Both the position numbers and the translations under genes were made by a program. The notes beneath the pieces were generated by a model, which searched no databases, had not been told where the DNA came from, and saw nothing but the letters and a program-made list of their open reading frames with translations. From a candidate division WOR-3 bacterium (lineage in GTDB: Bacteria; Hydrothermota; Hydrothermia; Hydrothermales; JAJRUZ01), in contig JBDRZP010000002.1 of the NCBI GenBank assembly GCA_039804025.1, positions 96,851 to 160,850 of the forward strand: a DNA stretch of 64,000 nt, in the 5' to 3' direction. Shown one piece after another: positions 10,803-63,551 of the stretch (its first letter is position 1; every line of letters starts with the position of its first letter).

Positions 10803-10807
10803 AACTT

Positions 10808-11023: not shown

Positions 11024-11036
11024 ATTTTTCCTCCTT

Positions 11037-11784: not shown

Positions 11785-11807
11785 TTTTTCCTCCTTTGTT
11801 TAAAATG

Positions 11808-11857: not shown

Positions 11858-11871
11858 AGTTTAAGAATTAA

Positions 11872-45871: not shown

Positions 45872-45922
45872 AAAGTTTAATTTGCTTTTTATATTTTAAT
45901 AAAATTATAATTTTTTTTCAAC

Positions 45923-45957: not shown

Positions 45958-46194
45958 ATGGATGTTTTTAACACTCTAAGGGATATAATTGTGGAAGAAC
46001 TGAATGTAACACCAGAACAGGTAACATTAGAAGCAAGATTTCAGGAGGATCTTGGAGCAGATTCTCTTGATGTAGTGGAACTTGTAATGAAGATAGAGGA
46101 AAAATTTGGTATTGAGATACCGGATGAAGATGCAGAAAAGATAAGAACAGTTAAGGATGCAGTTGAGTATATTGAAAGTAAATTAAAAACATGA
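45958..46194 (+). CDS. acpP: Acyl carrier protein
   Basis: [17 protein letters not shown]...[13 protein letters not shown] carries the phosphopantetheine-attachment site DSLD. The RBS is AAAAGGAGG. The track ORF starts falsely inside the tRNA. Confidence 0.9.
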
Positions 46195-47432
46195 AAAGGG
46201 CTGTTGTAACAGGGATAGGTATTCTTACTTCCCTTGGTAAAACAAAAGATGAAAATTTCAATAATTTACTGAAAGGGAAAAGTGGAGTAAAAGTTATTGA
46301 AAAATTTGATGTTTCTGATTTTCCATCAAAAATTGCAGCTGAAATAAAAAATTTTGATCCAACAGATAGACTTTCTCCAAAAGAAATAAAAAGACAGGAT
46401 CTTTTTGTAATTTATTCCCTTTATGTTGTAGAAGAGGCACTTAAAGATGCTGGATGGGATAAGGGATTTCCTTATAAAGGTGAAGAAGTTGGCGTTATAA
46501 TTTCTTCAGGGATTGGTGGAATTATTACCCTTGAGGAGGAAATCAAGAAAATGGTGCAAAAGGGGGCAAAATGGGTTTCTCCTTTTCTTGTTCCTATGAT
46601 GATACCAGATATGGCTTCTGGTGTAATTTCAATAAAATACGGTTTTAAAGGTCCTAATTTTTGTGTTGTTTCCGCATGTGCTTCAAGTGCCCATGCTCTT
46701 GGTGAAGCAAAGTTAATAATAGAAAAGGGTTATGCCAAAGCAATGGTAGTGGGGGGTGCAGAAGCTCCTATAACCCCAATAGCTATTGCTGGATTTGGAA
46801 ATATGAAAGCTCTATCAACAAGAAACGATGAGCCAGAAAAAGCTTCAAGACCATTTGATAAATTAAGAGACGGTTTTGTTATGGGTGAAGGATGTGCTGT
46901 TCTAATACTTGAGGAAAAGGAAAGTGCTATAAAAAGAGGAGCAAGAATTTATGCAGAACTAATAGGCTATGGAGCAACAGCGGATGCATTCCATATTACA
47001 GCCCCCTGTGCTGATGGAGAGGGAGCCTATAGAGCAATGAAGATGGCATGTGAGGACGCAGGAGTAAATCCAGAGGAAATAGATTATATAAATGCTCATG
47101 GAACAGCAACACCAAGGGGTGATGTAGCTGAGACCCTTGCGATCAAGAAACTTATGGGAGAAAGAGCATATAAGGTGCCAATAAATTCAACAAAAAGTAT
47201 GGTAGGACATTTATTAGGTGGAGCCGGAGCACTTGAAGCTGCTGTTACTGCCCTTTCAATTTATCATAAAAAGGTCCACCCAACAATTAACCTTGAAGTT
47301 CCTGATCCTGAATGTGACCTTGATTATGTTAAAGAGGGTTCAAGAGAAGTAGATATAAAGTATGCTCTCTCAAATTCTTTTGGTTTCGGGGGGCATAACT
47401 GTTCTCTTTTATTTAAAAAATTTGAGGAATAA
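46191..47432 (+). CDS. fabF: 3-oxoacyl-ACP synthase II
   Basis: It carries the Cys-His-His triad context: [20 protein letters not shown] and GHLLGGAGA. Confidence 0.9.
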
Positions 47433-47434
47433 TT

Positions 47435-48448
47435 ATGAAGGATGATAGAAAAAAAGCACTTGAGATGGCTATAAAGCAAATAGAAAAGGTTCATGGTAAG
47501 GGAGCAATAATGAGATTAGGAGAGAGAGAATTAATAAAAGTACCGGTAATTTCTACAGGTTCAATATCCCTTGACCTTGCACTTGGAATAGGTGGTTATC
47601 CAAGGGGAAGAATAATTGAAATTTTTGGACCTGAGGCTTCTGGAAAAACAACCCTTGCACTACATGCAATTGCTGAGGTTCAAAAAGAGGGTGGGATTGC
47701 AGCCTTTATAGATGCTGAACATGCTCTTGACCCTGTTTATGCTGAAAAACTTGGTGTTAATCTTTCTGAATTATGGATTTCTCAACCAGATACAGGGGAG
47801 CAGGCTCTTGAAATTGCAGAAACTCTTGTTCGTTCAGGAGCTGTGGATTTAATAGTTGTTGATTCAGTTGCTGCCCTTGTTCCAAAAGCAGAAATAACAG
47901 GTGAAATGGGAGAAGCCCATGTGGGACTTCAGGCAAGGCTTATGTCCCAGGCTATGAGAAAACTGGCAGGAGTTTTAAATAAATCAAAAACCTGTGCGAT
48001 ATTTATAAACCAGATAAGACATAGAATAGGGGTTTTATATGGAAATCCTGAAACAACTCCAGGAGGCCTTGCTTTAAAGTTCCATGCTTCTTTAAGGCTT
48101 GAAATAAAGAAAGTTGAAACAATTAAATCAGATGAGGAAGTAATAGGAAATAGAGTGAAGGTAAAGGTCGTTAAAAATAAACTCGCACCACCTTTCAAAG
48201 AGGCTACTTTTGATATTTTATATGGAAAAGGAATATCAAAGGAAAGTGAATTAATTGATCTTGCTGTGGAAAAAGGAATTATTCAGAAATCAGGAGCCTG
48301 GTATGCTTATAAAGGGAGACAACTTGGTCAGGGAAAAGATAATGTAAGAAAAATTCTTGAAGAAGACAAAAAACTATTTGAGGAAATTGAAAAAGAGTTA
48401 AAAAAAGAACTTTTTGAAAAGGATATAAAAGAAGAGAAAAAAGATTAG
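47435..48448 (+). CDS. recA: Recombinase RecA
   Basis: [39 protein letters not shown] carries the Walker A motif and the L1 / L2 regions. Confidence 0.95.
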
Positions 48449-49337
48449 AGTCGGAATAATTCTTAACCCTTATTCAGGTTCAGGAAAATCTAATAAAATT
48501 TTAAAATGGTTAAAGGAAAAATTGAAAGTTGATAGATATAGTTATTTTATTGAAATTCTGGAAAAAGGTAAAAATATTAGGGAAAATTTATTAAGATTAT
48601 GGGAAAAAAAGGTAAACAAAATAATTGTTTTAGGGGGTGATGGAACACTTTTTCACATTATAAATAATATACCAAAAAATTTTAATATTCCTTTTTCTCT
48701 TTTTCCTTCTGGTTCAGGTAATGATTTTATAAAAACAATTTTTCGAAATAAAAAGGATCTTTCATTTTTTTATGAAGTTTTTAAAAGAGGAATTATTAAA
48801 AGTACCTATACGGGTGAAGTAATAACTAAAAATAAAAGATATTTTTTTGTGAATGCAGCAGGCATTGGTTTTGACGCTAAAATTGCAAAAAGAGCTCTTA
48901 AAATAAGGTCTCTAAGAGGTTTATTGAGGTATCTTCTTTCACTTTTTATAGAGTTAAGGGGAAAAATTTCCTATGAGATGGAAATAGAAGATAGGGAGAA
49001 AGTTTTAAAAGGGAAATATTTGATTCTGGGTTTAGGTATAGGGAAATATTTGGGTGGTGGTTTCTATTTATTTCCAGATGCTTCTCCCTTTGATAATAAA
49101 CTTTCTATATGTATTATTAAAGATATGGATAAGATAAATGTTTTTAAAAAATTGCCCCATGCAATTAAGGGAACACACCTTTCTTTACCAGAATGTATTT
49201 ATTTTAAAAGAGAAGATATAAATATAAAATTAAAAGAAAAAATATTCATTCAATTGGATGGAGAGGTTTTTAAACTTAAGGATAATGAAATAAGAGCAAA
49301 AATCTCAGATAGAAAATTCAATCTCCTCTATATCTGA
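48444..49337 (+). CDS. Diacylglycerol / lipid kinase catalytic-domain protein (YegS / DagK-like); start unresolved
   Basis: The frame is open from 48429 and reads (I)[19 protein letters not shown]...[12 protein letters not shown]. These are the DAGK_cat glycine-loop and GGDGT motifs. The TTG at 48522 used in the track would remove the essential NPxSGxG loop. The only in-frame candidate start is the ATT at 48444, which overlaps the recA TAG stop. Confidence 0.65.
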
Positions 49338-49470
49338 TTGACAAATTAAACTAAAAAACATTAATAATTATTTATGAACCATGTTTATAAAAAAAAATTT
49401 TTTTTAAGAGAAAAAAATGATAAAAAAACTGCAAAACAACAAGATTTTAAAAAAATAAAAAAAATATCTA

Positions 49471-49555
49471 TGTGGAAATTTTTTGAACATTTTAATTATC
49501 TGATTGTAATAGAGTCAGATTTTTATAAAATATAATGTGGAAATCTTTGTGGAAA
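49471..49555 (+). promoter_or_regulatory. Cluster of three DnaA-box-like 9-mers (ATGTGGAAA / TTGTGGAAA) upstream of dnaA
   Basis: TGTGGAAA occurs at 49471-78, 49536-43 and 49548-55, all in the same orientation. The consensus DnaA box is TTATCCACA, whose reverse complement is TGTGGATAA. The boxes here are the TTTTCCACA variant. Confidence 0.55.
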
Positions 49556-49574
49556 AATTTAAAAAAATTTAAAG

Positions 49575-49586
49575 AGGTTCAATTCC
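49575..49586 (+). promoter_or_regulatory. Upstream motif AGGTTCAATTCC, 22 nt upstream of the dnaA ATG
   Basis: Seen directly. Confidence 0.5.
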
Positions 49587-49608
49587 TCGAATAAAAAGGA
49601 GTAAATAA

Positions 49609-50934
49609 ATGAAAGGTAAAACCTTGTGGGAAAAAATGGTTGAAAAATTGAAAAAGGAGCTTTCTGAACAGGAATTCAGATTATTTGAAAAGGTAAATGG
49701 TGGAGATATTGAGGAAGATCACAAGCTTAAGATTTTCTGTCCTGATGAGTATACTAAGGACATAATAGAAAAGGCTTTTGGGGCGAAGTTAAAAAGAATA
49801 CTTTCTGACCTTGATTATCCAATGATTGAGTTAGTTTTTGAAATTAAAGGGGATGGAAAAGCTGAGGAAATCAAGAATATAAAAGTCAAAGATGAGGAAA
49901 TTAAAAGGGAGGGAATTCATTATGGATTAAATCCTGTTTATACTTTTGAAAATTTTGTTCCAGGGAAAAATAGTGAAATGGCTTACACTACTGCCAGGGC
50001 TGTAGCTCATGCACCGGGGCATGAGTACAACCCCCTATTTATTTATGGTGGGGTTGGTCTTGGAAAAACACATCTTCTTCATGCTATAGGTAATGATATT
50101 TTAAAAAGAAAAAAGAACTTCAAGATTTTATTACTAACAACTGAGGAACTCATATCTAAAATTGTTGATGCAATTCAAAAAAGAAAAATGAATGAATTTA
50201 GAAGCAAAATAAGAAGTTTTGATGTGCTTTTGATTGATGATATTCACTTTCTCTCTGGAGCTGAATTTTCTCAGGAAGCTTTATTCCATATATTTAACTC
50301 TTTTTATAATGAAAAAAAACAGGTGGTCCTCACTGCAGATAGAGCACCCTGGGAAATGGATAACATAGCAGAAAGACTTGTGGACAGATTCTCCTGGGGG
50401 CTTGTAACTGATATAAAGCCTCCTGAATATGAAACAAGGCTCGCTATTTTAAAACTTAAGGCTGAAGAGAGGGGGCTTGAAATTTCTGAGGATGTTTTAG
50501 AATTAATAGCAAGAAATGTAAAGAAGAATGTAAGACTTCTTGAGAGTTGTATAGCAAAATTATATGCAATACAGTCTCTTAAAAGAATAAAAATAACTCT
50601 TCCAATGGCTCAAAAATATCTAAGTGATATATTCTCTTCAGCAGCTATAAATGAGCCTGATGATGTAGTAAGAGTGGTTTCTGAATATTACAATATTCCA
50701 AAAACTGAAATAACTGGAAAGAAACAAAAAAAAGAGCTGGTTCAAGCAAGACAGGTAAGCATGTTTATAATGAAAAATGTTTTCAATATGACTGTAGTGG
50801 AAATTGCAAAATACTTTGATAAAGACCATACAACTGTTTTACATGCAATAAATAAAATTGAATCCCAGATTCAGAAAAACGAAAAATTAAAAGAAGATAT
50901 TATGGAAATTGAAAAAATGTTAAAAAGAGTGTAG
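49609..50934 (+). CDS. dnaA: Chromosomal replication initiator DnaA
   Basis: The AAA+ motifs are NPLFIYGGVGLGKTHLLHAIGN and LLIDDIHFL. The C-terminal DNA-binding domain is RQVSMFIMKNV...TVLHA. Confidence 0.95.
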   Translation: MKGKTLWEKMVEKLKKELSEQEFRLFEKVNGGDIEEDHKLKIFCPDEYTKDIIEKAFGAKLKRILSDLDYPMIELVFEIKGDGKAEEIKNIKVKDEEIKREGIHYGLNPVYTFENFVPGKNSEMAYTTARAVAHAPGHEYNPLFIYGGVGLGKTHLLHAIGNDILKRKKNFKILLLTTEELISKIVDAIQKRKMNEFRSKIRSFDVLLIDDIHFLSGAEFSQEALFHIFNSFYNEKKQVVLTADRAPWEMDNIAERLVDRFSWGLVTDIKPPEYETRLAILKLKAEERGLEISEDVLELIARNVKKNVRLLESCIAKLYAIQSLKRIKITLPMAQKYLSDIFSSAAINEPDDVVRVVSEYYNIPKTEITGKKQKKELVQARQVSMFIMKNVFNMTVVEIAKYFDKDHTTVLHAINKIESQIQKNEKLKEDIMEIEKMLKRV

Positions 50935-50940
50935 AAAAAA

Positions 50941-51058
50941 TGTGGAAAAGTATTTTATTAATTTTTCCAATATTTTTCCACATTGAATTTTTTTTAGAGA
51001 CACCTAATGATTTTAAATTTCCACAAACTTAATAATATAATTATAAATATATATTTAA
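50941..51058. other. Candidate oriC: three DnaA-box variants in both orientations plus an AT-rich unwinding tract, between dnaA and dnaN
   Basis: TGTGGAAAA lies at 50941-49 on the + strand. TTTCCACA lies at 50975-82 and 51018-25, which is the opposite orientation. The AT tract TAATAATATAATTATAAATATATATTTAAC spans 51029-51058. Confidence 0.55.
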
Positions 51059-51060: not shown

Positions 51061-51072
51061 AGGTTCAAATCC
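51061..51072 (+). promoter_or_regulatory. Upstream motif AGGTTCAAATCC, 19 nt upstream of the dnaN ATG
   Basis: Seen directly. Confidence 0.5.
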
Positions 51073-51091: not shown

Positions 51092-52180
51092 ATGAGATTT
51101 AAAATTTTAAAAGAAGACTTTTTGAAAATGATTGAGAGTGTATATCATGCTATTCCATCAAAGGCAGCATTACCAATTCTTGAAAACATAAAGTTAGAGA
51201 CAAAGGGAAACGAAGTTAATCTTTTTTCCACAAATTTAAACTTTTCTTTAAAAGTTAAGGGAAAGGCGGATGTTGAGGAGGAAGGAGCAATTTGTATAAA
51301 AGGAAAAGAATTAAAGGAAATAGCTTCAAGAATTAAAAATGAAAAAATTTTAATAGAGAAAAGAGATGAAAGGGAACTTTTAATTCATACTTCCCTTGGT
51401 GAATACAGTTTTTTTATTCAGCCGCCTGAGGAGTTTCCCTCAATTGAGGAGATAGAGTTAAAGGAAGGGATTGAGGTCCCATCAAATTTAATATTAGAAG
51501 GTATTGAGAAAGTTTCCTTCTGTGTAGCAAAGAATGATTCAAGACAATTTTTAAACAATATTTTGCTGGACTTAAAGAAGAATAAGCTTTCTTTTGTTTC
51601 CTCTGATTCACATAAACTCGGTGTTTATGAGATAGAAATTGAAAATAAAGGTGTAGAAGGTGAATATTTACTGGATCCAAAGAGCTTTGATTTTCTTAAA
51701 GAATACAAAAATGAAACAATTAAAATATTTTTCTCTGAGACTAAAGTTCAGTTTAATTTCAGCAATGGATATGAAATAGTAAATCTTGTTGATGATAAAT
51801 TTCCTGATTACAGAGCTGTTGTCCCCTCAGATACTCCTTACAGATTAAAAATTGTAAGGGAAGATTTAATAGAAAGTTTAAGAAGACTATCAGTTTTTAC
51901 TACACCTCCTAATCATCCTGTACAATTTTCTCTTTCGCCAGAATCGTTAATTATAAGGGCAGTCTCAGGTGAGGTAGGAGAAGGATATGAAAAGTTAAAA
52001 GGTTTCTATGAAGGAGATAAAATTGAAATTGGTTTTAACTCTCATTATTTGCTTGATATTTTAAGACATATAGATGAAGATGTGGTAGAAATAGGTATTA
52101 CTGGAAGTGAAAGTGCAAGTTTAATAAAGGGGGAAGGCGCTAATCATTACTTTTATCTTTTAATGCCCATTAGGATTTAG
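51092..52180 (+). CDS. dnaN: DNA polymerase III beta subunit (sliding clamp)
   Basis: It has the three-domain clamp architecture. The N-terminus MRFKILKEDFLKMIESV...LPILENIKLE is typical of DnaN. Confidence 0.9.
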   Translation: MRFKILKEDFLKMIESVYHAIPSKAALPILENIKLETKGNEVNLFSTNLNFSLKVKGKADVEEEGAICIKGKELKEIASRIKNEKILIEKRDERELLIHTSLGEYSFFIQPPEEFPSIEEIELKEGIEVPSNLILEGIEKVSFCVAKNDSRQFLNNILLDLKKNKLSFVSSDSHKLGVYEIEIENKGVEGEYLLDPKSFDFLKEYKNETIKIFFSETKVQFNFSNGYEIVNLVDDKFPDYRAVVPSDTPYRLKIVREDLIESLRRLSVFTTPPNHPVQFSLSPESLIIRAVSGEVGEGYEKLKGFYEGDKIEIGFNSHYLLDILRHIDEDVVEIGITGSESASLIKGEGANHYFYLLMPIRI

Positions 52181-53002
52181 TATAGATTCTAAAATTCTAA
52201 AAACTTGTTTAGTTTCAAGTACATCGTGTACTCTTATTATGTTTACTTTTTTTAAAAATAAATAGGCAGCAACTGCAAGGGTACCTATTAATCTATCCTC
52301 AGGTTTTTCTAATTCAAGTATTTTCCCTATAAAGGACTTTCTTGAATGACCTACTAATATAGGAAACCCGAACTCTTTAAATTCATCTATATTTTTCAAA
52401 ATTAAAAGGTTATCAATTACCCTTTTTCCAAAACCTATACCTGGGTCTATAACTATTTTTTCTTTTTTAATCCCATTTTTTAAAGCAAAGTCTACTTTCT
52501 CTTTAAGTTCCTCTTTAATTTCCTTTATGGTATCCTCATAGAAGGGGTTTTCCTGCATATTTTTTGGTGTTCCCCTTATATGCATTATTATTATACCTGC
52601 ATCAAATTTTTTAACAATCTTTATCATTTCCGGGTCATCCCTTAATCCTGATATGTCATTAACTATATTTGCTCCTCTTTTTAAAGCTTCTTCTGCCACC
52701 TTTGACTTTCTTGTATCTATTGAAATTGGAATATCTATTTTTTTTCTTAATCTTTCAATAACTGGGATAACTCTTTTTAATTCTTCTTCAAGAGGCACAG
52801 GCTCCGAAAAAGGTCTTGAAGACTCACCTCCTATATCAATTATATCTGCACCTTGCTCAAAAATTTCTTTACCCCTTTCGAGAGCTTTATCTAAATCAAA
52901 ATACTTTCCCCCATCATAAAAGGAATCAGGGGTTACATTCAAAATACCCATTATTTTTGGTTCTGAAAGATCTATTTCTCCTTCTTTAAATGAAAAATTC
53001 AA
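52160..53002 (-). CDS. folP: Dihydropteroate synthase
   Basis: GILNVTPDSFYDGG...IIDIGGESSRP is the pterin-binding signature. Confidence 0.9.
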   Translation of the reverse strand: MNFSFKEGEIDLSEPKIMGILNVTPDSFYDGGKYFDLDKALERGKEIFEQGADIIDIGGESSRPFSEPVPLEEELKRVIPVIERLRKKIDIPISIDTRKSKVAEEALKRGANIVNDISGLRDDPEMIKIVKKFDAGIIIMHIRGTPKNMQENPFYEDTIKEIKEELKEKVDFALKNGIKKEKIVIDPGIGFGKRVIDNLLILKNIDEFKEFGFPILVGHSRKSFIGKILELEKPEDRLIGTLAVAAYLFLKKVNIIRVHDVLETKQVFRILESILNPNGH

Positions 53003-53132: not shown

Positions 53133-53498
53133 TTATTCTTTAAATATTTTTTTAATTGCTTCTCTCAGAGTCTGTACTGTAAATGGTTTAGGTAAAAAGG
53201 CATCCGCGTTTAAATTTTTAACTTTTTCCCTTGTTTCAAAAGAATCATAAGCTGTAACAACTATTGACCTTATATCAGGGTCCTGCATCTGAATTTTTGC
53301 CAGAAGTTCCAGGCCTGAAATTCCTGGTAATTTTATGTCAGTGATAATAAGATCATACTCCCCTGGAACAAATTTCTCAAGGGCTTCTTCTCCTGTTCTT
53401 GCGAGAGTTACATCGTGCTCCTCTTTTAATGTCTGGGAAACAAAGAAAGATAAAGGACCCTCATCCTCCACCACAAGAATTTTTAATTTTTTCATCAA
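53133..53498 (-). CDS. Single-domain response regulator (CheY-like)
   Basis: ILVVEDE...DLIITDIKLPGISGLELL...VVTAY. Confidence 0.85.
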   Translation of the reverse strand: MMKKLKILVVEDEGPLSFFVSQTLKEEHDVTLARTGEEALEKFVPGEYDLIITDIKLPGISGLELLAKIQMQDPDIRSIVVTAYDSFETREKVKNLNADAFLPKPFTVQTLREAIKKIFKE

Positions 53499-55018
53499 AT
53501 CTCCTCCATCATTTCTATAAATTTTTCAACAATTTCAGGTTTAAATTTGTATCCCTTTAATTCTCTTAAAAGTTTTATTGCCTCCTTTTTATCTAATTTA
53601 TCTGCATAACTTCTTTCATTAGTGATTGCATCATAAACATCACATATGGAAATAATCTGTGCACCTAATGGAATCTCATCGCCCTTTAACCCATCAGGAT
53701 AACCCGATCCATCCCAGTTTTCATGGTGATATTTTATAAGGGGAAGAACAGGTTTTAAAAAGGCAATAGGCTTTAATATCTCAAGACCTATTTGAATGTG
53801 TTCCTTCATCAATTCCATTTCTTCTCTTGTTAAAGTGCCAGGTTTATCAAGTAAATATTCCCTTATTCCAATTTTACCAACATCATGAAGAAGCGCTGCA
53901 TATCTTATATTTTTAATATCTTCTTCGTTTAAATTTAACTTTTTAGCGAATTTAACAGCAAGTTCAGATACTCTCTGAGAATGACCCCTTAAGGAAGGAT
54001 CCTTTGCTTCTGTTGCTTTAACAAGAGCCATTAGGGATTCTATATAGCTTCTTTCAAGTTTTTTAAAGAGAATGGCATTTTGAATTGAGACTGAAGCGTG
54101 ATTCGCATAAATTGATAGTTCTTCTTTTAACTCTTGTAAACTCTCTTCCATTCTGTTACCGATCATTAAAGCACCAATAACCCCTTCATTTGTTTCAAGG
54201 GGAATAATCATTATTTCTCTTATATCCCCTTCCGTATATTTAATTAAGAAACTTTCCTTTTCTGTTTCAAGGTTAAGTTTATCATCCCTTTTAATTAAGT
54301 TATCAAAACCGTAAACTTCTTTAACAGAAAAGTGAGAATTTTCTTTTAAAAGGAAGGCACAGTCTTTTTTCCCTGCTATTTCCATTGCTCCTTCAATTAT
54401 AAGGGGTATAAGTTTTTCAAGGTAAAGTTCGGATTGAAGTTTATCACTTAAGTGGTGCAGAATTGATAACTTATTAATTTTTTCTTCCAGTTTTTTATCA
54501 ACTTCAGCTTTTTGAGCTTTTAATTTTTCATTTGCAATTGAAAGTTCCTTGTTTAGCCTACTTAATTCATTAAGAAGTCTTTTATTTTCTTCCTGTAATT
54601 TTCTTTTTCCCAGTGCATTTTTAATAACATTTTTCAGGGTTTCAACTTTAAAGGGTTTTATTAAATAATCATAAGCACCAGCCTTTAAGGCTTCAATTGA
54701 ACTTTCAAGAGATGCGTAGGCCGTCATCATGATTACCTGAATATCAGGATCAAGAGCCTTTGCTGCCTTTAAAATTTCAATTCCCGTTGTATCAGGTAGT
54801 CTTATATCCTGCAATATGAGATGAGGTAAAAACCCCTCAATTATTTTTAGGGCATCAGAGCCATTATGGGCTACTCTCACCTCATAATCAAGATTATCCT
54901 GTGTAATGTTTTTTACAATAAAATTAGCCAGAGTCTCTTCATCATCTACCACAAGTATTCTCCATTTTTCTTCTTTCATATCAATATATATTTTAAAGTT
55001 TTTATTTAGGTAATTCAA
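53495..55018 (-). CDS. Response regulator with GAF-like and HD-GYP (c-di-GMP phosphodiesterase) output domains
   Basis: The receiver domain is ILVVDDE...LQDIRLPDTTGIEIL...MMTAY. The HD-GYP domain is HSQRVSEL...LLHDVGKIGI...HHENWDGSGYPDGL. Confidence 0.85.
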   Translation of the reverse strand: MNYLNKNFKIYIDMKEEKWRILVVDDEETLANFIVKNITQDNLDYEVRVAHNGSDALKIIEGFLPHLILQDIRLPDTTGIEILKAAKALDPDIQVIMMTAYASLESSIEALKAGAYDYLIKPFKVETLKNVIKNALGKRKLQEENKRLLNELSRLNKELSIANEKLKAQKAEVDKKLEEKINKLSILHHLSDKLQSELYLEKLIPLIIEGAMEIAGKKDCAFLLKENSHFSVKEVYGFDNLIKRDDKLNLETEKESFLIKYTEGDIREIMIIPLETNEGVIGALMIGNRMEESLQELKEELSIYANHASVSIQNAILFKKLERSYIESLMALVKATEAKDPSLRGHSQRVSELAVKFAKKLNLNEEDIKNIRYAALLHDVGKIGIREYLLDKPGTLTREEMELMKEHIQIGLEILKPIAFLKPVLPLIKYHHENWDGSGYPDGLKGDEIPLGAQIISICDVYDAITNERSYADKLDKKEAIKLLRELKGYKFKPEIVEKFIEMMEEI

Positions 55019-57569
55019 TTAAGAATTTGGTTCCTTTTCCTTTTTCGCTCTCTACATATATTTTTGCTCCGTGATCCTCAATAATTCTGTGGACTATTGC
55101 AAGCCCCAAACCGGATCCTCCCTTTTTTGTTGTATAAAAGGGTTCAAATATATGGGCAAGTTCAGAGGGTTCAATTCCCACACCCGTATCTTCTATACTT
55201 ATAAATATTATCCCTCCTGTTTTCTCACCTGCCTGTAAGGTAAGTTTCCCTCCTTCTGGCATTGCTTCTAATCCGTTTCTTATTAAATTTTCCAAAACTT
55301 CCTTCATCTGGTCTTCATCAATATAGGCTATAAGCTCATATTCTGGTAAACTGAGATAAAAATCAACTTTTTTCTCTCTGAATTCCTGGCTGTAAAAAAT
55401 TACTATTTCTTCAATCATCTCTTTTATATTTACCCTTTTTCTTTTAAGAGGAGGTCTCCTTGCAAAGGAAAGGAGATTTTTAATAAGTCTATCAAGTCTT
55501 GAAATTTCCTTTAATATAACTCCAAGATGTTTTTTCTTTGGATCATCATCCTGTAAACTGGAATATATATACTCAATACCAACTGATATACTTGCAAGTG
55601 GATTTTTAATCTCATGTGCCATGTGAGCTGCAATCCTTCCAATTGCTGAGAGTCTTTCAGTTCTTCTTAACTGTTCTTCAAGTGCGACCACTTCTTTTAT
55701 ATCTTCAATCATAAGTATAAAACCCTTAATTCTTTCTTTTTCATAAATGAAAGTTGAAGAAAGTGAGAGAGGAATTGTTTCTTCACCTCTTTTTATTTCT
55801 ACATTTTTCTTTATAAGGGGGATTCTCTCCTCAATACTTCTTCTAAAAATACAATTTGGGTCCCCAGGTTCGTGTTCCTCAAATATCCTGCAAAGAGAGC
55901 TTTCCTTTATTTCCTCCTCTTTTAACTTTAAAGTATAAATTGCAGCAAAATTCACCCTTTTAACATAAAGGTCTCTATCTGCATAAATTATACCAACTGG
56001 AATATTTTTAAGGATTATATCTATAAATTCTTCTTCTCCTTTTAAAATAGATAATTCCTTTTTGTATTCATCTATAGCCTTTCTATAAGCCAAAAAACTC
56101 GAAATCAATTTTGATATTCTTTCAAAAATTTCAATATCTTCCTTTGAAAAACCATCAATCTTAGGTGAAGAAATTACCATCACTCCTATTGCTTCTTTAT
56201 CAACAATTAAGGGCAAAACAACCTCTGATTTAACAAGGGGTGAGGCTGGAATATACCTTATATCTTTTGAAACATCAGGTGCGTAAATAATCTCCTTTCT
56301 ATGAACAGCATGCCCTGAAAGTCCCTCAACACCTATTTTTAGTCTTCTCTTTGAGAGCTCCTCAAAATCTTCATAGCCAATTCCAACTTTCATTCTTAAA
56401 TAATCCTCTTCTTCCCTTAAAAGAAAACCAACATATAAAATGTCTAATTCATCTTTTATTATATAACCTACATTGTATAAGAGATCTTCAATATTTTGAT
56501 GATGGGGCACTATATCTATTATTCGCATCAATACCCTGTTAAGTTTATTTAAATTTTCAATTTTTTTCTTTAAATTTAAAATATCTAATATAAGGGATAG
56601 AAATACCGGATTTATATAACTTTTTTCTCCTTTGAAAGAAACAAGGTATTCAGCTTGAGAGGTTTTTAATTCAAAGATATTAAAATCTTTTTTTTCTTTA
56701 AATTCTCTCCTATCCTCAAGGGACTTGAATTTTTCTTCCTCTTTTATAAAAACTTCTGTTTCATAAACATTAAATCTTTCACTAAGGTAACTTTTGAAAA
56801 ATTTTAAGGATTCATTAAAGTTTAAGGAAATAATTTTTTCAAAAAATTCTGATGAAAATAAGAGTTTTTCTTCATACCACTCCTCTGATAGATTAACGAT
56901 TGAATTTAAAAATTCTTTTTCCTCTTCATTTAAAAATTCTTTATCTACAAGAAGTATTGTTTTACTTTTTGAAAAGGAAAATAATTTTTTTTCTTCATAA
57001 ATAATACTTTCTCCTTGAGTTTCAAAATAAGGAATTATCTCCTTTATTTTCTCCTCATCTAATTTTTCTAAAGTTCCAATTTTTATATTAAAATTTTTAG
57101 TTTTAAAATAGATTCCATTTAAATTTAAAAGATAAGATAGTTCTTTTAAAGAATTTTCAATATTCTCCCTTATTTGAGCTTCCAAGGACCTATGGAAATT
57201 GAAGAGAAAGTTCAATTTAAATATTTCATTTTTAGCATCTTCAAAAAGTCTGTAATTCTTTATAAAAATAGATGTTGTATAAAGTATTTTTTTTATTTCT
57301 TCTATTTTTAAATCATCTTTTAAGGAAAAAGAAATTATTGTGTATATTTTCTCATTGTCATGAAGAGGAATATAAATATTTCCATTTTTTATAACTTCCT
57401 CTTTATCAAACAATAATTTTTTCAATTCTTTTACTTCAAGAAAACCTTTTATTTTTTCTGGTTCAATAAGATTTATTTCAGAATTAATTTTTAATTCGAG
57501 AAAATTTTTTATGTTTTTAATTATTTCGGCTATACCTTTTGATTCATTTAATAAATCAATTAATTCCAT
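55002..57569 (-). CDS. Multi-sensor (GAF / PAS-like) histidine kinase, cytoplasmic
   Basis: The H-box is AHMAHEIKNPLASI. HATPase_c carries IEDTGVGIE and GSGLGLAIVHRIIEDHG. Confidence 0.8.
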   Translation of the reverse strand: MELIDLLNESKGIAEIIKNIKNFLELKINSEINLIEPEKIKGFLEVKELKKLLFDKEEVIKNGNIYIPLHDNEKIYTIISFSLKDDLKIEEIKKILYTTSIFIKNYRLFEDAKNEIFKLNFLFNFHRSLEAQIRENIENSLKELSYLLNLNGIYFKTKNFNIKIGTLEKLDEEKIKEIIPYFETQGESIIYEEKKLFSFSKSKTILLVDKEFLNEEEKEFLNSIVNLSEEWYEEKLLFSSEFFEKIISLNFNESLKFFKSYLSERFNVYETEVFIKEEEKFKSLEDRREFKEKKDFNIFELKTSQAEYLVSFKGEKSYINPVFLSLILDILNLKKKIENLNKLNRVLMRIIDIVPHHQNIEDLLYNVGYIIKDELDILYVGFLLREEEDYLRMKVGIGYEDFEELSKRRLKIGVEGLSGHAVHRKEIIYAPDVSKDIRYIPASPLVKSEVVLPLIVDKEAIGVMVISSPKIDGFSKEDIEIFERISKLISSFLAYRKAIDEYKKELSILKGEEEFIDIILKNIPVGIIYADRDLYVKRVNFAAIYTLKLKEEEIKESSLCRIFEEHEPGDPNCIFRRSIEERIPLIKKNVEIKRGEETIPLSLSSTFIYEKERIKGFILMIEDIKEVVALEEQLRRTERLSAIGRIAAHMAHEIKNPLASISVGIEYIYSSLQDDDPKKKHLGVILKEISRLDRLIKNLLSFARRPPLKRKRVNIKEMIEEIVIFYSQEFREKKVDFYLSLPEYELIAYIDEDQMKEVLENLIRNGLEAMPEGGKLTLQAGEKTGGIIFISIEDTGVGIEPSELAHIFEPFYTTKKGGSGLGLAIVHRIIEDHGAKIYVESEKGKGTKFLIELPK

Positions 57570-58595: not shown

Positions 58596-59552
58596 ATGAA
58601 AAAATTATTTTACATTTTAAACATTATTCTTGCTCTAATTCTGATTTACATAATACAGTATCCTAAAATACAGCAGGGTAAAATAGTAAAAGCAAAAATT
58701 GCTTTTTACCCTTCTCCTGCTAGTTTTCCGGTTTTTGTTGCAAAGGAAAAAGGATTTTTTGAAAAGGAAAAAGTGGATGCTGAAATTATAAAGACTTCTT
58801 TACCGGAAGTTATAGATGAATTAAAAAGGGGGAAGGTGGATATAGTTGTAGGTTACCCGCCTATTGATTTCTTTATAAGGCAAAAGGAGGAGATTGAAAA
58901 CTATAAAATTATTGCGGATGTTGAAGATAATGAAGATTTTGTATATGCTTCCCTTTTTGGTTTTGGAAAATTGAAAGAAATTAAGGACATAAAGAATTCT
59001 TTATTTTATTATCCTTCACAGAGAATGGAGGGAAAGTTTATTGGGAAAAAAATTTCTGAAAACTTTGGTTTAAATATTAGTAATATCTTTGAATATCAAA
59101 CAGTTTTTCCTCAGATTATAGAGGGTGCAGCTCTTGTTTACGAACCTTACAGGTTATTTTTCCTGAAAAGAAATATAAAAGTTTTAGTTGATGATGTTTT
59201 CAAGGAATTTTTTGGGGAGGGTTCAGTTATTGGAAGTGTTTTGTGTTCAAAGGTAACCCTTGCGTATAACAGGAGAGCATATGAGAGATTTAAAGTAATA
59301 TGGGATGAATCTGTTGATTACATAAAAAATAATCCTGATGAGGCAAAGAATTTATATATTGCTTACTGTGTTCAATATCTTGATGCTGATTTCCTTAAAG
59401 AAGATTTAGAAAGCTATGAATTAAAACTTCCAAGATATAAAAAAACAGGAGAAGTTAGTGATTTAAGTTATTTAACAATTGTAAGAATTTTAAAAAATTC
59501 AGGATTTATTTTTACTGAGCCAGATTTAGCAAGTCTTTTTGAGGTAAAATGA
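58596..59552 (+). CDS. Periplasmic-binding-protein-fold (NMT1 / THI5 / SsuA-like) protein
   Basis: It has an N-terminal signal or anchor segment and a type-II PBP fold. It overlaps purN in an ATGA junction. No permease or ATPase partner is present. Confidence 0.5.
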   Translation: MKKLFYILNIILALILIYIIQYPKIQQGKIVKAKIAFYPSPASFPVFVAKEKGFFEKEKVDAEIIKTSLPEVIDELKRGKVDIVVGYPPIDFFIRQKEEIENYKIIADVEDNEDFVYASLFGFGKLKEIKDIKNSLFYYPSQRMEGKFIGKKISENFGLNISNIFEYQTVFPQIIEGAALVYEPYRLFFLKRNIKVLVDDVFKEFFGEGSVIGSVLCSKVTLAYNRRAYERFKVIWDESVDYIKNNPDEAKNLYIAYCVQYLDADFLKEDLESYELKLPRYKKTGEVSDLSYLTIVRILKNSGFIFTEPDLASLFEVK

Positions 59553-60163
59553 AGATTTTAAAAATCGGAGCCCTTGCTTCAGGTAGGGGTTCCAATGTTG
59601 AGGCTATTTTGAAAAATATTAAATCTGGTTATCTTCCCTGTGAGATGAAAATAGTAATTTCTGATAATCCGGATGCACCTGTATTAAAAATTGCAAGGGA
59701 GTACGGTGTAAAGGCTTTATATATTTATCCTGGTGAAAGAAAACATACCCTTGATCCAGAGAGGGAAGAAGAGTATGCAAGGGTTTTAAAAGAAGAAAGT
59801 GTAGAACTTTTAATTCTTGCAGGATTTATGAGGATTTTAAAAGGGGCACTTTTAAGGGAGTTTAGAAATAGAATAATGAATATACATCCTTCCCTTCTTC
59901 CTGCATTTAAAGGTCTTAATGCGCAAAAACAGGCTCTCGAATACGGTGTTAAAGTTGCAGGCTGTACTGTCCATTTTGTGGATGAGACAGTTGATGGTGG
60001 TCCGATTATACTCCAGAGATGTGTTCCTGTGCTTGAGGATGATACACCTGAAGCCCTTGCTGAAAGAATTCTTAAGGAGGAACATAAGATTTATTCTGAA
60101 GCAATTAAGCTTTATGCAGAGGGAAGGTTGAAGATAGAGGGTAGAAGAGTTAAAATATTATAA
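59549..60163 (+). CDS. purN: Phosphoribosylglycinamide formyltransferase
   Basis: ALASGRGSNVEAIL...NIHPSLLPAFKG...HFVDETVDGGPII is the PurN signature. Confidence 0.9.
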   Translation: MKILKIGALASGRGSNVEAILKNIKSGYLPCEMKIVISDNPDAPVLKIAREYGVKALYIYPGERKHTLDPEREEEYARVLKEESVELLILAGFMRILKGALLREFRNRIMNIHPSLLPAFKGLNAQKQALEYGVKVAGCTVHFVDETVDGGPIILQRCVPVLEDDTPEALAERILKEEHKIYSEAIKLYAEGRLKIEGRRVKIL

Positions 60164-60179: not shown

Positions 60180-63100
60180 ATGAGCGATTTTGTTCATTTA
60201 CATCTTCATACGGAGTATTCCCTTCTTGACGGGATAATTCCTATTGATAAGCTTCTTGATAAGTGTGTTGAAGAAAGAATGCCTGCCTGTGCTATAACTG
60301 ACCATGGTGCTTTATTTGGTGTTATAGAGTTTTATAAAAAAGCAAAAGAAAGGGGTATAAAACCAATAATAGGGGCTGAGCTTTATATAACAAGATCAAG
60401 AAAGGAAAAGGTGGTTTCCCCAGGTTATGATCCTTATAATCACATAACCTTAATTGCCAAAAATTTAAAGGGATATAAGAATTTAATGAAACTATCTTCA
60501 ATAGGATATCTTGAAGGATTTTATTATAAGCCAAGAATTGATAGGGAGGTTCTTAAAAATTATTCTGAAGGACTTTTCTTTCTGACAGGTTGTATTAAAG
60601 GAGAGATACCACAGCTAATATTACAGGGTAAGATAAAAGAAGCAGAGGATCTTTTAAAAATATACATGGAAATATTCGGAAAAGAAAATTGTATTATTGA
60701 GCTTATGGATCTAAATATGGAGGAAAACATAATTGTAAATAAAGTCCTTTATGAATTTGCCAAAAAGTATGATCTTGTGTATGTTGCCACAAATGATGTT
60801 CATTATCTTGATAAAGAGGATTATGAATTTCATGAAGCAATTCTTGCTCTTCAAACAGGTAAGACATTGAAGGATAAGGAAAGATTCAGATTTAAAACAA
60901 AGGAAGTTTATTTTAAAAGTGAAAAGGAAATGAAGCAAATTTTCAGTTATGATGAAAGGGCAGTTTTAAATACAAGAAAAGTAGAAGAAATGATTGATAT
61001 TGATTTGAAGCTCAACGAAAATTTTTATTTGCCAAAAATTGAAATACCACATCAGTTTGATAGTAATTTTGAATATTTAAAATATTTAAGTTATAAAGGG
61101 CTTGAAGAAATTTTTAAGGGTGATATAAAAAAGAAGTATATTGAAAGGTTAGAAAAGGAGCTTTCAATAATACAAAAATTAAACTTTGAAGGTTATTTCC
61201 TGATTATAAAGGACATAGTTGATTTCGCAAAAAGGGAAGGAATACCTGTTGGTCCTGGCAGGGGTTCAGCAGTTTCTTCACTTGTTCTTTATTCACTTGG
61301 TGTTACGAGGATTGACCCCTTGAAGTATGATCTTCTTTTTGAAAGATTTTTAAACCCTGAAAGAATATCTCCGCCTGATGTGGATATAGATTTTGGTGAT
61401 GAAAGGAGAGATGAAATTTTATCCTATATAAGAAAAAAATACGGAGAAAAAAATGTATCCCAGATTATAACTTTTGGGAGAATGAAGGCAAGGCAGGCAA
61501 TAAGGGATATGGGTAGAGTATTGGGTTATGAATATTCCTTTGTTGATAAACTTGCAAGAGAATGTATTGAGGGAACTTTAGAAGAATCATATTCGGAAAA
61601 TCCGGTTTTTAAGAGACTTGTTGAGGAGAATGAAGATTACAGGAAGATATACGAGTATGCAAAAAAAGCAGAGGGACTTGCAAGACATGCCTCAGTTCAT
61701 GCAGCAGGAGTTGTTGTTGCTCCATCTGAAATAACTGATTATGTGCCTCTTTATATGGATTCAAAAGGAACCATCTGTTCTCAGTATGAGATGAATTCTC
61801 TTGAAGCTGTTGGACTTTTAAAAATAGATATATTAGGACTAAGAACTTTAACTGTAATTGAAGATACATGTAAATTGTTAAAAAATAAGGGAATAGAGGT
61901 AGATCCTTACAATTTGCCTCTTGATGATAAAAAAACTTTTGAAATTCTATCAAGGGGTAAAACTCAGGGAGTTTTTCAGCTGGAATCAAGGGGGATGAGG
62001 GAACTTCTTAAAAGATTAAAACCGGATGAATTTAGGGATCTAATTGCAATTCTTTCCCTTTATAGACCCGGACCAATTGAGGCAGGAGCAACTGAAGAAT
62101 ATGTGAGGAGGAAAAAGGGACTTGTTCCTCTTAGTTATCCCCATGAAAAACTTGAGAAAATTTTAAAGGAGACCTTTGGTCTCATTGTATATCAGGAGCA
62201 AGTTATGCTTATAGCCCATGAGCTTGCAGGTTTTTCCTTTGCTAAAGCTGATATTTTGAGAAAGGCTATGGGTAAGAAAAAGGAAGAATTAATGAGTGAA
62301 AGTATAATGAGGGAATTTGTAAGTGGTATGGTAGAAAGAGGTATTCCTGAAGATATGGCAAAGGATATGGTTTTAAAGATACATTCCTTTGCAAAGTATG
62401 CTTTTAATAAGTCTCATTCAACAGGTTATGCACTTTTATCTTATATAACAGCATACCTCAAGGCAAATTATAAAACAGAATTTTATGCCTCTGTTTTAAA
62501 CAGTGAAATAAATAAAATTGAGAAAGTTTCTTACTTTGTTCAAACTGCAAAGAGGGATGGTATAGAAATTTTACCTCCCTGTATTTTAAATTCAGATAAA
62601 TTCTTTAAAGTTGAGGGGGAAAATAAAATAAGATATGGGCTTTTAGGGATTAAAAATGTAGGAGTAAATGCCTGTGATCATATTATAGAATTGAGACGAC
62701 AGAAACCATTTACCTCTTTTGAGGATTTTGTTAGAAGGGCTTCGTCCAAAAAAGTTACCAAGAAAGTTATAGAAGCATTGATTAAAGCAGGGGCTTTTGA
62801 TATTTTTGATCCAGATAGGGAAAAATTGATGAATATTTTTGAAAATAAACTTGTTAAAAAATCAGTTCCCTCACTTTTTACAAATAAAGTGGAGGAAATT
62901 CAGGAAGAAAAAGATGCTTTAAGAGTTATGGAGTGGGAAAAGGAGGTTTTAAATATGTATTTTAAAAACCACCCTCTTGAACCCTATTCAGAATTTGTAG
63001 AGATTCTTTCAACCCACTCATCAATTGATATACAGGAAGAGGAGGAGATAGAACTTAGAAATGTAAGAATGTGTGGGGTTTTGAGCAAAGTGGAATCAAA

Positions 63101-63551
63101 AATTAATAATGATGGGAAAAGAAATTATTATATTCTGCATCTTGAGGATTTTGAAGGTTCTTTTCAAGTTGTTATATTTGATGAATTGAAGAATAAAATT
63201 GAAAAATACCTTGATAAACTTGCTCCTTTTTATGTTGAAGGAGATGTTTTTCAGGGTTCTTCAAAAATATTTGCAAGAGAAATTATGCCTTTAAAGGAAG
63301 CGATTTCTAAAAAATTGAAGGGAATACTTATAAAATTAAATTTAAAAGAACTTGATGAAGAAAAAATTAAAAGTTTAAAGGAAATAGTAAATAAATTTAA
63401 GGGAAAATTTGATCTTTATTTATCCCTTGATACAGGAGAAAAAAGGAGAATTTATAAATCAATGGTTTTTAAAGTTTCTTTTAAGGAAGAGTTTTTTGAT
63501 GAAATTAATGAACTATTTGGGGAAAATAGGATTGAAAGTCTTGTTGAATGA
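60180..63551 (+). CDS. dnaE: DNA polymerase III alpha subunit
   Basis: The PHP domain is FVHLHLHTEYSLLDG. The polymerase core is GPGRGSAVSSLV. The OB domain follows. The protein is 1123 aa. Confidence 0.95.
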   Translation: MSDFVHLHLHTEYSLLDGIIPIDKLLDKCVEERMPACAITDHGALFGVIEFYKKAKERGIKPIIGAELYITRSRKEKVVSPGYDPYNHITLIAKNLKGYKNLMKLSSIGYLEGFYYKPRIDREVLKNYSEGLFFLTGCIKGEIPQLILQGKIKEAEDLLKIYMEIFGKENCIIELMDLNMEENIIVNKVLYEFAKKYDLVYVATNDVHYLDKEDYEFHEAILALQTGKTLKDKERFRFKTKEVYFKSEKEMKQIFSYDERAVLNTRKVEEMIDIDLKLNENFYLPKIEIPHQFDSNFEYLKYLSYKGLEEIFKGDIKKKYIERLEKELSIIQKLNFEGYFLIIKDIVDFAKREGIPVGPGRGSAVSSLVLYSLGVTRIDPLKYDLLFERFLNPERISPPDVDIDFGDERRDEILSYIRKKYGEKNVSQIITFGRMKARQAIRDMGRVLGYEYSFVDKLARECIEGTLEESYSENPVFKRLVEENEDYRKIYEYAKKAEGLARHASVHAAGVVVAPSEITDYVPLYMDSKGTICSQYEMNSLEAVGLLKIDILGLRTLTVIEDTCKLLKNKGIEVDPYNLPLDDKKTFEILSRGKTQGVFQLESRGMRELLKRLKPDEFRDLIAILSLYRPGPIEAGATEEYVRRKKGLVPLSYPHEKLEKILKETFGLIVYQEQVMLIAHELAGFSFAKADILRKAMGKKKEELMSESIMREFVSGMVERGIPEDMAKDMVLKIHSFAKYAFNKSHSTGYALLSYITAYLKANYKTEFYASVLNSEINKIEKVSYFVQTAKRDGIEILPPCILNSDKFFKVEGENKIRYGLLGIKNVGVNACDHIIELRRQKPFTSFEDFVRRASSKKVTKKVIEALIKAGAFDIFDPDREKLMNIFENKLVKKSVPSLFTNKVEEIQEEKDALRVMEWEKEVLNMYFKNHPLEPYSEFVEILSTHSSIDIQEEEEIELRNVRMCGVLSKVESKINNDGKRNYYILHLEDFEGSFQVVIFDELKNKIEKYLDKLAPFYVEGDVFQGSSKIFAREIMPLKEAISKKLKGILIKLNLKELDEEKIKSLKEIVNKFKGKFDLYLSLDTGEKRRIYKSMVFKVSFKEEFFDEINELFGENRIESLVE

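Follow-up and report, generated by a model that had tools for sequence, protein, structure and literature searches.

Conserved DnaA-box clusters on both sides of dnaA mark a probable replication origin and dnaA control region in a WOR-3 bacterium

Does the DNA around dnaA hold the replication origin of an uncultured bacterium, or do the DnaA boxes found there control transcription only? We address this question in a stretch of 64,000 nucleotides (the window) from a hot-spring metagenome-assembled genome of the uncultured WOR-3 lineage 'Ca. Hydrothermales' (equivalent to Caldifarciminales). We conclude that the region is probably a replication origin combined with a dnaA control region, in which the core oriC and its unwinding element occupy the dnaA-dnaN spacer and an operator array occupies the dnaA leader. 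The layout is that of an ordinary, expected bacterial origin and dnaA control region, with no new kind of element. The gene neighbourhood on which an earlier note had relied, recA-dnaA-dnaN-dnaE with acpP/fabF, folP and purN nearby, is borne out by NCBIfam (Table 1), and the two spacers considered here adjoin dnaA and dnaN, as expected of an oriC, both genes matching equivalog models. Rfam yields two tRNAs only, whether 48.4-52.3 kb is scanned permissively or the whole window at the gathering threshold. The DnaA protein is full-length, and domain IV retains the recognition elements R..DHTTV.HA seen in the E. coli (1J1V) and B. subtilis (8BTG) proteins; the predicted DNA-reading residues of this domain are orthodox.

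Table 1. Genes and sequence elements of the dnaA region, with positions in the window
Feature	Position	Strand	Remarks
acpP	45958-46194		NCBIfam
fabF	46191-47432		NCBIfam
recA	47435-48448		NCBIfam
lipid kinase gene	48522-49337		NCBIfam
TTGACA, -35-like hexamer	49338-49343	+	candidate distal dnaA promoter; directly after lipid-kinase stop codon
DnaA box 1, ATTTCCACA	49471-49479	-	kept in L004-L010; TTATCCACA in L011/L012
box 1-box 2 interval	49480-49535	+	A/T-rich; 65 bp start to start, length invariant
DnaA box 2, ATTTCCACA	49536-49544	-	pattern search, alignment
DnaA box 3, TTTTCCACA	49548-49556	-	12 bp after box 2
leader motif AGGTTCAATTCC	49575-49586	+	22 nt before dnaA ATG; genome-wide motif, not origin-specific
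dnaA	49609-50934	+	441 aa; TIGR00362, 456 bits
degenerate box TTTTCTACA	50930-50938	-	overlaps dnaA stop codon
DnaA box 4, TTTTCCACA	50941-50949	-	7 nt after dnaA stop; TTATCCACA in L006
tandem pair: degenerate TTTTCCAAT (50963) and box 5 TTTTCCACA (50974)	50963-50982	+	11 bp apart; both toward dnaN
GATTTTAAA, then box 6 ATTTCCACA (51017-51025)	51006-51025	+	GATTTTAAA conserved; box 6 points at A/T tract
candidate DNA-unwinding element	51029-51058	.	30-nt pure A/T tract, rich in TA steps
leader motif AGGTTCAAATCC	51061-51072	+	19 nt before dnaN ATG
dnaN	51092-52180	+	362 aa; TIGR00663, 220 bits
folP	52160-53002	-	NCBIfam
purN	59549-60163		NCBIfam
dnaE	60180-63551		NCBIfam

A pattern search for TGTGGAAA returns matches at 49471, 49536, 49548 and 50941 on the plus strand and at 50975 and 51018 on the minus strand, identical to the base with the six positions claimed in the earlier note. 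All six exact TGTGGAAA/TTTCCACA boxes (8-mer cores) fall in the two spacers that flank dnaA (428 bp together), three in the 271-bp spacer upstream of the gene and three in the 157-bp dnaA-dnaN spacer. Dinucleotide shuffles of these spacers contain on average 0.021 and 0.012 boxes, respectively, and none of 20,000 reaches three for either spacer. Across the whole window the pattern occurs ten times (3.9 expected), a total attained in 1 of 100 shuffles, and the remaining four matches lie in coding DNA (8272, 31730, 48265 and 51225). A box-density scan places the two highest peaks of the 64 kb in the dnaA-flanking spacers and finds no further cluster within the window. Read as 9-mers, boxes 1-3 are ATTTCCACA, ATTTCCACA and TTTTCCACA, boxes 4-6 are TTTTCCACA, TTTTCCACA and ATTTCCACA, and two degenerate neighbours occur downstream of dnaA (TTTTCTACA at 50930 and TTTTCCAAT at 50963). 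Good boxes number only three to four per cluster. Under an Ori-Finder/DoriC-type definition (consensus TTWTNCACA, at most one mismatch, intergenic DNA), both spacers contain an intergenic DnaA-box cluster. The suggestion that the box is a lineage-specific variant finds no support here: TTTTCCACA conforms to TTWTNCACA, the classical consensus, and is already known both from E. coli, as the mioC box, and from cyanobacteria (PMC5835720, PMC4674748), and half of the six boxes read ATTTCCACA.

The identity of these repeats is further supported by their conservation in relatives, which we grouped by DnaA identity into L004 (93%), L005-L010 (69-74%) and L011/L012 (44%); a scan of genome contigs supplied one relative only. 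The upstream spacing of 65+12 bp is kept in 10/10 loci, across which the interval between boxes 1 and 2 aligns without gaps. Among 67 unrelated dnaA loci, a negative control of generic DnaA loci (32-43% identity) drawn from a metagenome scan with universal Walker-A peptides, the 65+12 layout is found in none, and it therefore reflects a clade-specific constraint rather than chance. The downstream boxes stand at +7, +40 and +83 in most of the eight Hydrothermales loci, the exceptions being TTTCCACG in place of box 6 in L010 and an 11-bp shift in L008, and the tandem pair at +29/+40 is present in most relatives. In L011/L012 the homologous box positions hold the canonical TTATCCACA. Position, orientation and spacing kept in ten related loci, together with the canonical sequence at 44% DnaA identity, argue that the six repeats are real DnaA boxes, as the earlier note had proposed, to which DnaA would bind.

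The second cluster does adjoin the 30-nt pure A/T tract described previously, which begins 3 nt after box 6. Pure A/T runs of at least 30 nt occur five times in the window, and such a run by itself is therefore not unique; the least stable duplex 30-mer of the 64 kb starts at 51028 (-25.0 kcal/mol, the next being -26.5). The tract contains TATAAT (51036-51041), which is separated from box 6 by exactly 10 nt and does not vary in 8/8 close relatives, while the length of the 3' part of the tract differs among relatives. Layout, conservation and predicted low stability indicate an A/T-rich element beside the boxes, at which the duplex would unwind. The box rule of the basal unwinding system allows up to two mismatches in a box that is oriented toward the repeats and at most 16 bp away (PMC8287927); box 6 reads ATTTCCACA, with a spacer of 3 nt. 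DnaA-trios are defined as at least three consecutive NAN trinucleotides in the strand opposite TTATCCACA, with 3'-GAT-5' as the preferred form (PMC8287927). Read by hand, the tract offers 3'-AAT TAT TAT-5', which passes the permissive pattern (.A.){3}, as would any pure A/T tract; manual reading and the alignment reveal neither GAT trios in this string nor 3-periodicity in the conservation of the tract.

We propose that the core origin would consist of the reverse box at 50941, the tandem pair spaced by one helical turn (50963/50974) and the final box at 51017, the last of these aimed at the TA-step-rich tract. ATP-DnaA bound at the spacer boxes would oligomerise into the A/T tract and open it for helicase loading, as in the B. 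subtilis incC or 'basal unwinding system'. Under this model DnaA would bind the boxes, the duplex would unwind at 51029-51058 and the origin would fire at this locus. The three same-orientation upstream boxes, which with their 65- and 12-bp spacing would bracket a promoter-like segment of the dnaA leader, most likely serve autoregulation of dnaA by DnaA. They may in addition supply the second half of a bipartite origin, possibly with dnaA looped out. The bipartite oriC/dnaA-promoter architecture claimed earlier is retained in part: two clusters separated by dnaA are kept in ten loci, but the upstream trio fits a dnaA operator equally well. The promoter scan reports one promoter-like pair between boxes 1 and 2, TTGTAA(49504)-16-TAAAAT(49531), and in the alignment the -35 register varies among relatives. 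The more distal TTGACA recurs 133-135 bp before box 1 in 8/8 Hydrothermales loci and was left unscored by the scan because its -10 hexamer is non-canonical.

Transcription supplies another way to read both clusters. They could be operators only, serving autoregulation of dnaA and control of dnaN by DnaA, with the origin at another chromosomal site, an arrangement known from E. coli, in which 42 kb separate oriC from the DnaA boxes of the dnaA promoter. The A/T tract also resembles a dnaN promoter in the promoter scan (TTTAAA-18-TATAAT, 10/12, box 6 within the spacer) and is followed by a generic leader motif; on this evidence the downstream cluster may be an operator. We nevertheless regard this reading as unlikely. 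In its favour are the promoter-like hexamers enclosed by boxes 1-3 and the position of box 6, which has a -35-like hexamer on one side and a perfect -10 hexamer on the other. Promoter-like matches, however, are no commoner than in shuffles (13 against 9.8 +/- 2.2 expected). In L011/L012 the box-to-TATAAT distance is 3 nt; the -35/-10 geometry is lost there, but the box still adjoins the A/T tract. The few boxes per cluster, the leader motif after each of them and a skew breakpoint away from the spacers would suit operators; no 30-mer of the window is less stable than the tract, however, the strand-orientation switch is at most ~10 kb away, and bacterial oriCs are found more often in the dnaA-dnaN spacer than anywhere else (PMC8287927). 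It is far less probable still, to the point of being nearly dismissible, that the boxes are conserved as codons of small proteins, namely a 53-codon ORF at 49374-49535, in which box 1 encodes M-W-K, and a 30-codon ORF at 50940-51032. An open frame of 51-79 codons does run through box 1 in 7/8 Hydrothermales loci, often with its ATG 6-8 nt after the distal -10, and gene callers annotate it in several assemblies; its eight homologues all fall within the lineage. Its substitution pattern is not protein-like, however, which led us to reject it as the cause of box conservation: pN/pS is 0.75, equal to that of an alternative frame, codon position 1 is the most variable, and the peptides of the window and L004 share 49% identity where the DnaA proteins share 93%. 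The frame is broken in L008 and has no Pfam match. The 65+12 spacing persists in L011/L012; the frame through box 1, read by eye in L011 only, closes there after ~14 codons. The downstream ORF was likewise set aside, being closed in L005 and not conserved among relatives. The 49374-49535 frame may be translated as a sequence-independent upstream ORF.

Skew and gene orientation bear on whether the origin might instead lie where gene orientation switches (39.9-45.9 kb). One candidate site would be the spacer between tRNA-Leu and acpP, which has a 33-nt A/T run (45886-45918); the dnaA boxes would then be purely regulatory. The raw cumulative GC skew of the window reaches its minimum at ~40-41 kb. 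With the coding-strand effect removed (GC3 model, bootstrap), the replication-associated component flips sign at a best breakpoint of 41-46 kb with a long left tail, no bootstrap replicate placing it in 46-52.5 kb; the estimate comes from ~55 genes with large gene-to-gene scatter, in a window that extends 13 kb to the right of dnaA. A breakpoint at 39.9 kb maximises co-orientation. This alternative seems to us highly improbable all the same. Raw skew tracks the coding strand in this genome, and 39-47 kb contains neither a TTTCCACA box nor a near-consensus box cluster. The spacer at 45.8 kb is taken up by a tRNA gene and the acpP leader, and at 39.9 kb plsY overlaps the next gene, so that there is no spacer. 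In favour of an origin at dnaA, the minus strand holds 91% of the genes left of 39.9 kb, the S6-SSB-S18-L9 operon is directed away from dnaA both in the window and in L011/L012, and the replication-associated GC3 component changes sign nearby. Against it, the plus-strand genes from acpP to dnaA have a 'leading-strand-like' GC3 skew, and within the 64 kb the strand bias switches 5-11 kb to the left of the dnaA-dnaN spacer. The skew check suggested with the original claim, run on the window, agrees with it only loosely: on the scale of a chromosome 40-46 kb is 'at dnaA', but the spacers are not pinpointed. We discarded skew as a means of placing the origin exactly: an interval of 41-46 kb lacks the resolution to tell the spacers apart and is slightly at variance with both.

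The proposed origin in the dnaA-dnaN spacer, with a control array in the dnaA leader, has close parallels in known systems. In B. subtilis oriC (incA/B-dnaA-incC), box clusters likewise flank dnaA on both sides (PMC6669920, PMC8287927), and the boxes of the dnaA-dnaN spacer are aimed at an A/T-rich tract just before dnaN; the basal unwinding system there comprises DnaA-boxes 6/7, DnaA-trios and an A/T-rich 27-mer (PMC6669920, PMC8287927). The WOR-3 DnaA, 446-aa-like, can be aligned with the B. subtilis protein (8BTG) over its full length. The WOR-3 locus differs in having three upstream boxes rather than the more than ten of incA/B, a single final box 43 bp from the tandem pair instead of a tight tandem beside trios, no recognisable 3'-GAT-5' trios or GC cluster, and recA-lipid kinase rather than rpmH as its upstream neighbour. 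The oriC1-dnaA-oriC2 arrangement of H. pylori also places dnaA between two sub-origins with the unwinding element downstream (PMC8235120, PMC5043019), an arrangement that is predicted here; superhelicity dependence and DnaA-mediated looping have been demonstrated experimentally in H. pylori (PMC8235120, PMC5043019), whose box consensus differs. Cyanobacterial origins share the identical preferred 9-mer TTTTCCACA and boxes that adjoin the dnaN start, but dnaA is mostly not adjacent to the origin there (PMC4674748), whereas here dnaA adjoins the boxes, half of which are ATTTCCACA, and sister WOR-3 lineages use TTATCCACA. The autoregulated E. coli dnaA promoter region (dnaAp1/p2) resembles the WOR-3 leader in having DnaA boxes both between two promoter-like elements upstream of dnaA and to their sides (PMC5835720); the promoters are predicted ones in the present case, and the 65+12-bp layout of three boxes is specific to the clade.

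These results provide a well-founded origin prediction for the candidate phylum WOR-3/Caldifarciminota; in the searchable literature we found no paper naming the lineage (WOR-3 with Hydrothermales, or Caldifarcim-). The prediction leaves existing knowledge of origins unchanged, and can serve to orient MAG contigs, to estimate replication rates from peak-to-trough ratios in hot-spring metagenomes and to compare the distribution of the dnaA-flanking origin layout.

We further note a tRNA-T-arm-like motif, AGGTTCNANNCC, that recurs in 5' leaders 17-31 nt before the start codon. Its carriers include dnaA (copy at 49575), dnaN (copy at 51061), acpP, csp and other operon-leading genes. Before dnaN, AGGTTCAAATCC is found in all Hydrothermales loci and is missing from L011/L012; in these two, an AGGAG ribosome-binding site serves dnaN. 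Folding of four AGGTTCNANNCC leaders gives a hairpin of 3-4 bp at best (z -0.1 to -1.0) and hence no stable RNA structure, and a role as a -35 element was rejected on the ground that the distances to start codons do not fit. Literature searches for the motif string returned nothing relevant. Tentatively, and with considerable doubt, we suggest that this lineage-specific motif could be an undescribed promoter-proximal or 5'-leader signal of Caldifarciminales, which with the rigid 65+12 array could couple the replication genes to a global growth signal.

Four copies of the TGTGGAAA/TTTCCACA 8-mers on the plus strand and two on the minus strand were found by pattern search of the window at exactly the six positions given for DnaA boxes in the earlier note, and NCBIfam models bear out the gene neighbourhood it described around them (table). 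The window holds ten copies of the 8-mer against 3.9 expected, and six of these ten fall within the two spacers (428 bp in total) that surround a single open reading frame, dnaA. Dinucleotide shuffles of the two spacers gave means of 0.02 and 0.01 copies, and three copies were reached in 0 of 20,000 shuffles of either. We also note a TTTTCCACA inside dnaN at 51224, which lacks conservation.

Features of the dnaA region and its surroundings (window coordinates; for boxes 1-6 position and strand are those of the 8-mer, and the sequence is the 9-mer)
Feature	Position	Strand	Sequence or source
Box 1, upstream	49471	+	ATTTCCACA
Box 2, upstream	49536	+	ATTTCCACA
Box 3, upstream	49548	+	TTTTCCACA
Box 4, downstream	50941	+	TTTTCCACA
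Box 5, downstream	50975	-	TTTTCCACA
Box 6, downstream	51018	-	ATTTCCACA
Degenerate box	50930		TTTTCTACA
Degenerate box	50963		TTTTCCAAT
TTGACA	133-135 bp before box 1		conserved
Promoter-like hexamers TTGTAA-16-TAAAAT	bracketed by boxes 1 and 2		promoter scan
acpP	45958-46194		NCBIfam
fabF	46191-47432		NCBIfam
recA	47435-48448		NCBIfam
YegS-type lipid kinase	48522-49337		NCBIfam
dnaA	49609-50934		NCBIfam
dnaN	51092-52180		NCBIfam
folP	52160-53002	-	NCBIfam
Two-component system	53133-57569	-	NCBIfam
purN	59549-60163		NCBIfam
dnaE	60180-63551		NCBIfam
Leader copies	13150(-), 24852(-), 45923(+), 49575(+), 51061(+), 58566(+), 63624(+)		AGGTTCNANNCC
Weaker copies	4322(-), 11818(-), 21314(-)		AGGTTCNANNCC

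The boxes were compared with related dnaA loci graded by DnaA identity, namely the Hydrothermales relatives L004 (93%) and L005-L010 (69-74%) and the more distant WOR-3 loci L011 and L012 (both 44%). In all ten loci the upstream trio keeps one orientation and a start-to-start spacing of 65 bp and then 12 bp, and the stretch from box 1 to box 3 aligns without gaps. Among 67 unrelated metagenome dnaA loci, used as a negative control, spacings of 11-12 bp turn up often but the 65+12 layout never. From the comparison on both sides of dnaA (downstream side below), the repeats are functional equivalents of DnaA boxes held under positional constraint, in a precise arrangement that is characteristic of the clade. 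A 53-codon frame (49374-49535, plus strand) reads box 1 as M-W-K. It begins about 7 nt past the conserved distal promoter-like element, looks leaderless and is open in seven of eight lineages (broken in L008); some MAG assemblies list it as a hypothetical protein. A protein-coding cause for the conservation of box 1 was rejected, since substitutions in the frame do not follow a protein-like pattern: pN/pS is 0.75, no different from another frame, and variation is greatest at codon position 1. The product has no Pfam match, and it is the DNA itself that is conserved. A 30-codon frame across the downstream boxes was likewise set aside, being unconserved in relatives.

The box sequence had been described as a lineage-specific variant. 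The shift is real, in that sister WOR-3 lineages use TTATCCACA where (A/T)TTTCCACA is found here (at the trio positions L011 and L012 carry the canonical TTATCCACA twice and then CTATCCACA/TTATCAACA), but it is no new specificity; TTTTCCACA fits the Schaper-Messer DnaA-box consensus, TTWTNCACA. The same 9-mer is known from E. coli as the mioC-type box (PMC5835720) and from cyanobacteria as a box termed 'species-specific' (PMC4674748). The window DnaA can be aligned over its whole length with that of B. subtilis (8BTG), and its domain IV preserves the Arg and the DHTTV.HA motif with which E. coli DnaA (1J1V) reads DNA, so that ordinary TTWTNCACA-type specificity is expected.

The dnaA-dnaN spacer follows a common plan in the Hydrothermales loci: first comes a reverse box, at +7, then a tandem pair at about +29 and +40 (about 11 bp apart), and lastly a forward box near +83, preceded by GATTTTAAA and followed after exactly 10 nt by an invariant TATAAT within the A/T tract, the 3' part of which differs in length among loci. 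The 30-nt pure A/T run at 51029-51058 is present as the earlier note stated; it is one of five runs of at least 30 nt in a window of 30% GC, yet by nearest-neighbour energy no other duplex segment in the 64 kb is as unstable as the 30-mer at 51028. The tract could alternatively be a pure promoter, as a promoter scan reads TTTAAA-18-TATAAT across it. In L011 and L012, however, where TTATCCAC(A/T)-CAT-TATAATAATA is retained, the adjacency of box and tract survives while their distance falls from 10 to 3 nt, a change that would break the -35/-10 geometry; this favours an unwinding element, most likely at 51029-51058. The permissive (.A.){3} rule does formally yield DnaA-trios, which carry no meaning in a pure A/T tract. 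The spacer has the plan of a core origin, with boxes aimed at a minimally stable tract just before dnaN, and it shares boxes pointing at an A/T tract with B. subtilis incC (PMC6669920, PMC8287927). L005 (11476), L008 (9656) and L010 (~2293) have a further perfect box, TGTGGAAAA, immediately before the dnaN start codon (TGTGGAAAAATATG); the window lacks it.

The dnaA ATG follows boxes 2 and 3 at a distance of 32-73 bp in the Hydrothermales loci. Such a dnaA-leader location is classical for DnaA autoregulation, and the upstream trio probably serves this role at dnaA; by analogy with B. subtilis and H. pylori it may also form a second origin half. Promoter-like matches in the region are not in excess (13 versus 9.8 ± 2.2 in shuffles) and the -35 register varies among relatives, so promoter assignments here are putative. 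Midway between boxes 1 and 2, L005 (~9920), L008 (~8092) and L010 (~727) carry a near-palindromic TGTGCCACA/TGTGTCACA that the window lacks. Of the proposed bipartite oriC and dnaA promoter, the conserved DnaA-box arrays and the canonical dnaA-dnaN context are genuine, whereas we infer origin activity at this locus, the bipartite role of the trio and the placement relative to strand bias.

The GC-skew test suggested for that placement gave a mixed answer within the window: strand bias does switch near dnaA at chromosome scale, but 5-11 kb to its left, and this offset is the main evidence against an exact origin placement. Coding-sense GC skew is about +0.19 for genes on either strand across the window. 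Raw skew thus tracks the coding strand in this genome, its minima being gene-orientation changes, and the cumulative minimum at ~40-41 kb mainly marks the divergent plsY/Wzy_C boundary rather than the origin itself. A third-codon model separating gene-strand from replication terms yielded a replication component of about ±0.1 and a best breakpoint at 41-46 kb; bootstrapping over genes placed it at 39-46 kb in 59% of cases, further left in 40% and at 46-52.5 kb in none. A breakpoint at 39.9 kb makes 80% of genes co-oriented and one at 51.0 kb 67%; to the left of 39.9 kb the minus strand carries 32 of 35 genes, including the S6-SSB-S18-L9 operon. These values would suit an origin at the switch itself, which we do not favour: pattern search found no DnaA box between 39 and 47 kb, and the genes at 39.9 kb leave no spacer, so the offset is treated as noise or local rearrangement.

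When L008 (9666-19495; DnaA identity 69%) is compared with the window (39325-63551), plsY, dnaE, purN and an NMT1-like gene lie inverted right after its dnaN, and its upstream side lacks the Wzy/glycosyltransferase/recJ/ispDF block, so that rearrangement breakpoints cluster beside the dnaA-dnaN unit. The BFN nuclease-DUF3307-L9-S18-SSB-S6-YchF block lies at 9212-12885 (minus strand), 37-40 kb left of dnaA, and the same-named block in L011/L012 (3050-6602) is only 3.4 kb from dnaA; in both settings the block is on the strand that points away from dnaA.

Between the A/T tract and dnaN lies a conserved block with a copy of AGGTTCNANNCC, which resembles a tRNA T-arm and occurs eight times in the window (0.34 expected). 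One copy is the true T-arm of tRNA-Met; the other seven all lie in sense orientation, 17-31 nt ahead of the start codons of operon-leading genes (csp, the gene at 24834, acpP, dnaA, dnaN, the gene at 58596 and the gene after dnaE). The motif thus marks the block before dnaN as a general signal for gene expression that does not belong to the origin. The dnaN copy is kept in all Hydrothermales loci, and L011/L012 have an AGGAG ribosome-binding site instead. Folding gave hairpins of no more than 3-4 bp, with z-scores that are not significant, no counterpart of the motif was found in Rfam or the literature, and an Rfam scan matched two tRNAs and nothing else. In some leaders its TCCT part could pair with a downstream AGGAG ribosome-binding site.

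MAGs labelled candidate division WOR-3 hold an identical DnaA sequence, and the nearest relatives that carry a name are 'Candidatus Hydrothermales', now listed by NCBI taxonomy as Caldifarciminales, phylum Caldifarciminota. Two large secreted-type proteins on the minus strand (1365-4298 and 4345-7206), one combining CARDB with a Por_Secre_tail sorting domain (type IX secretion), the other a subtilase, would fit a secretion system of FCB-like type in this lineage.
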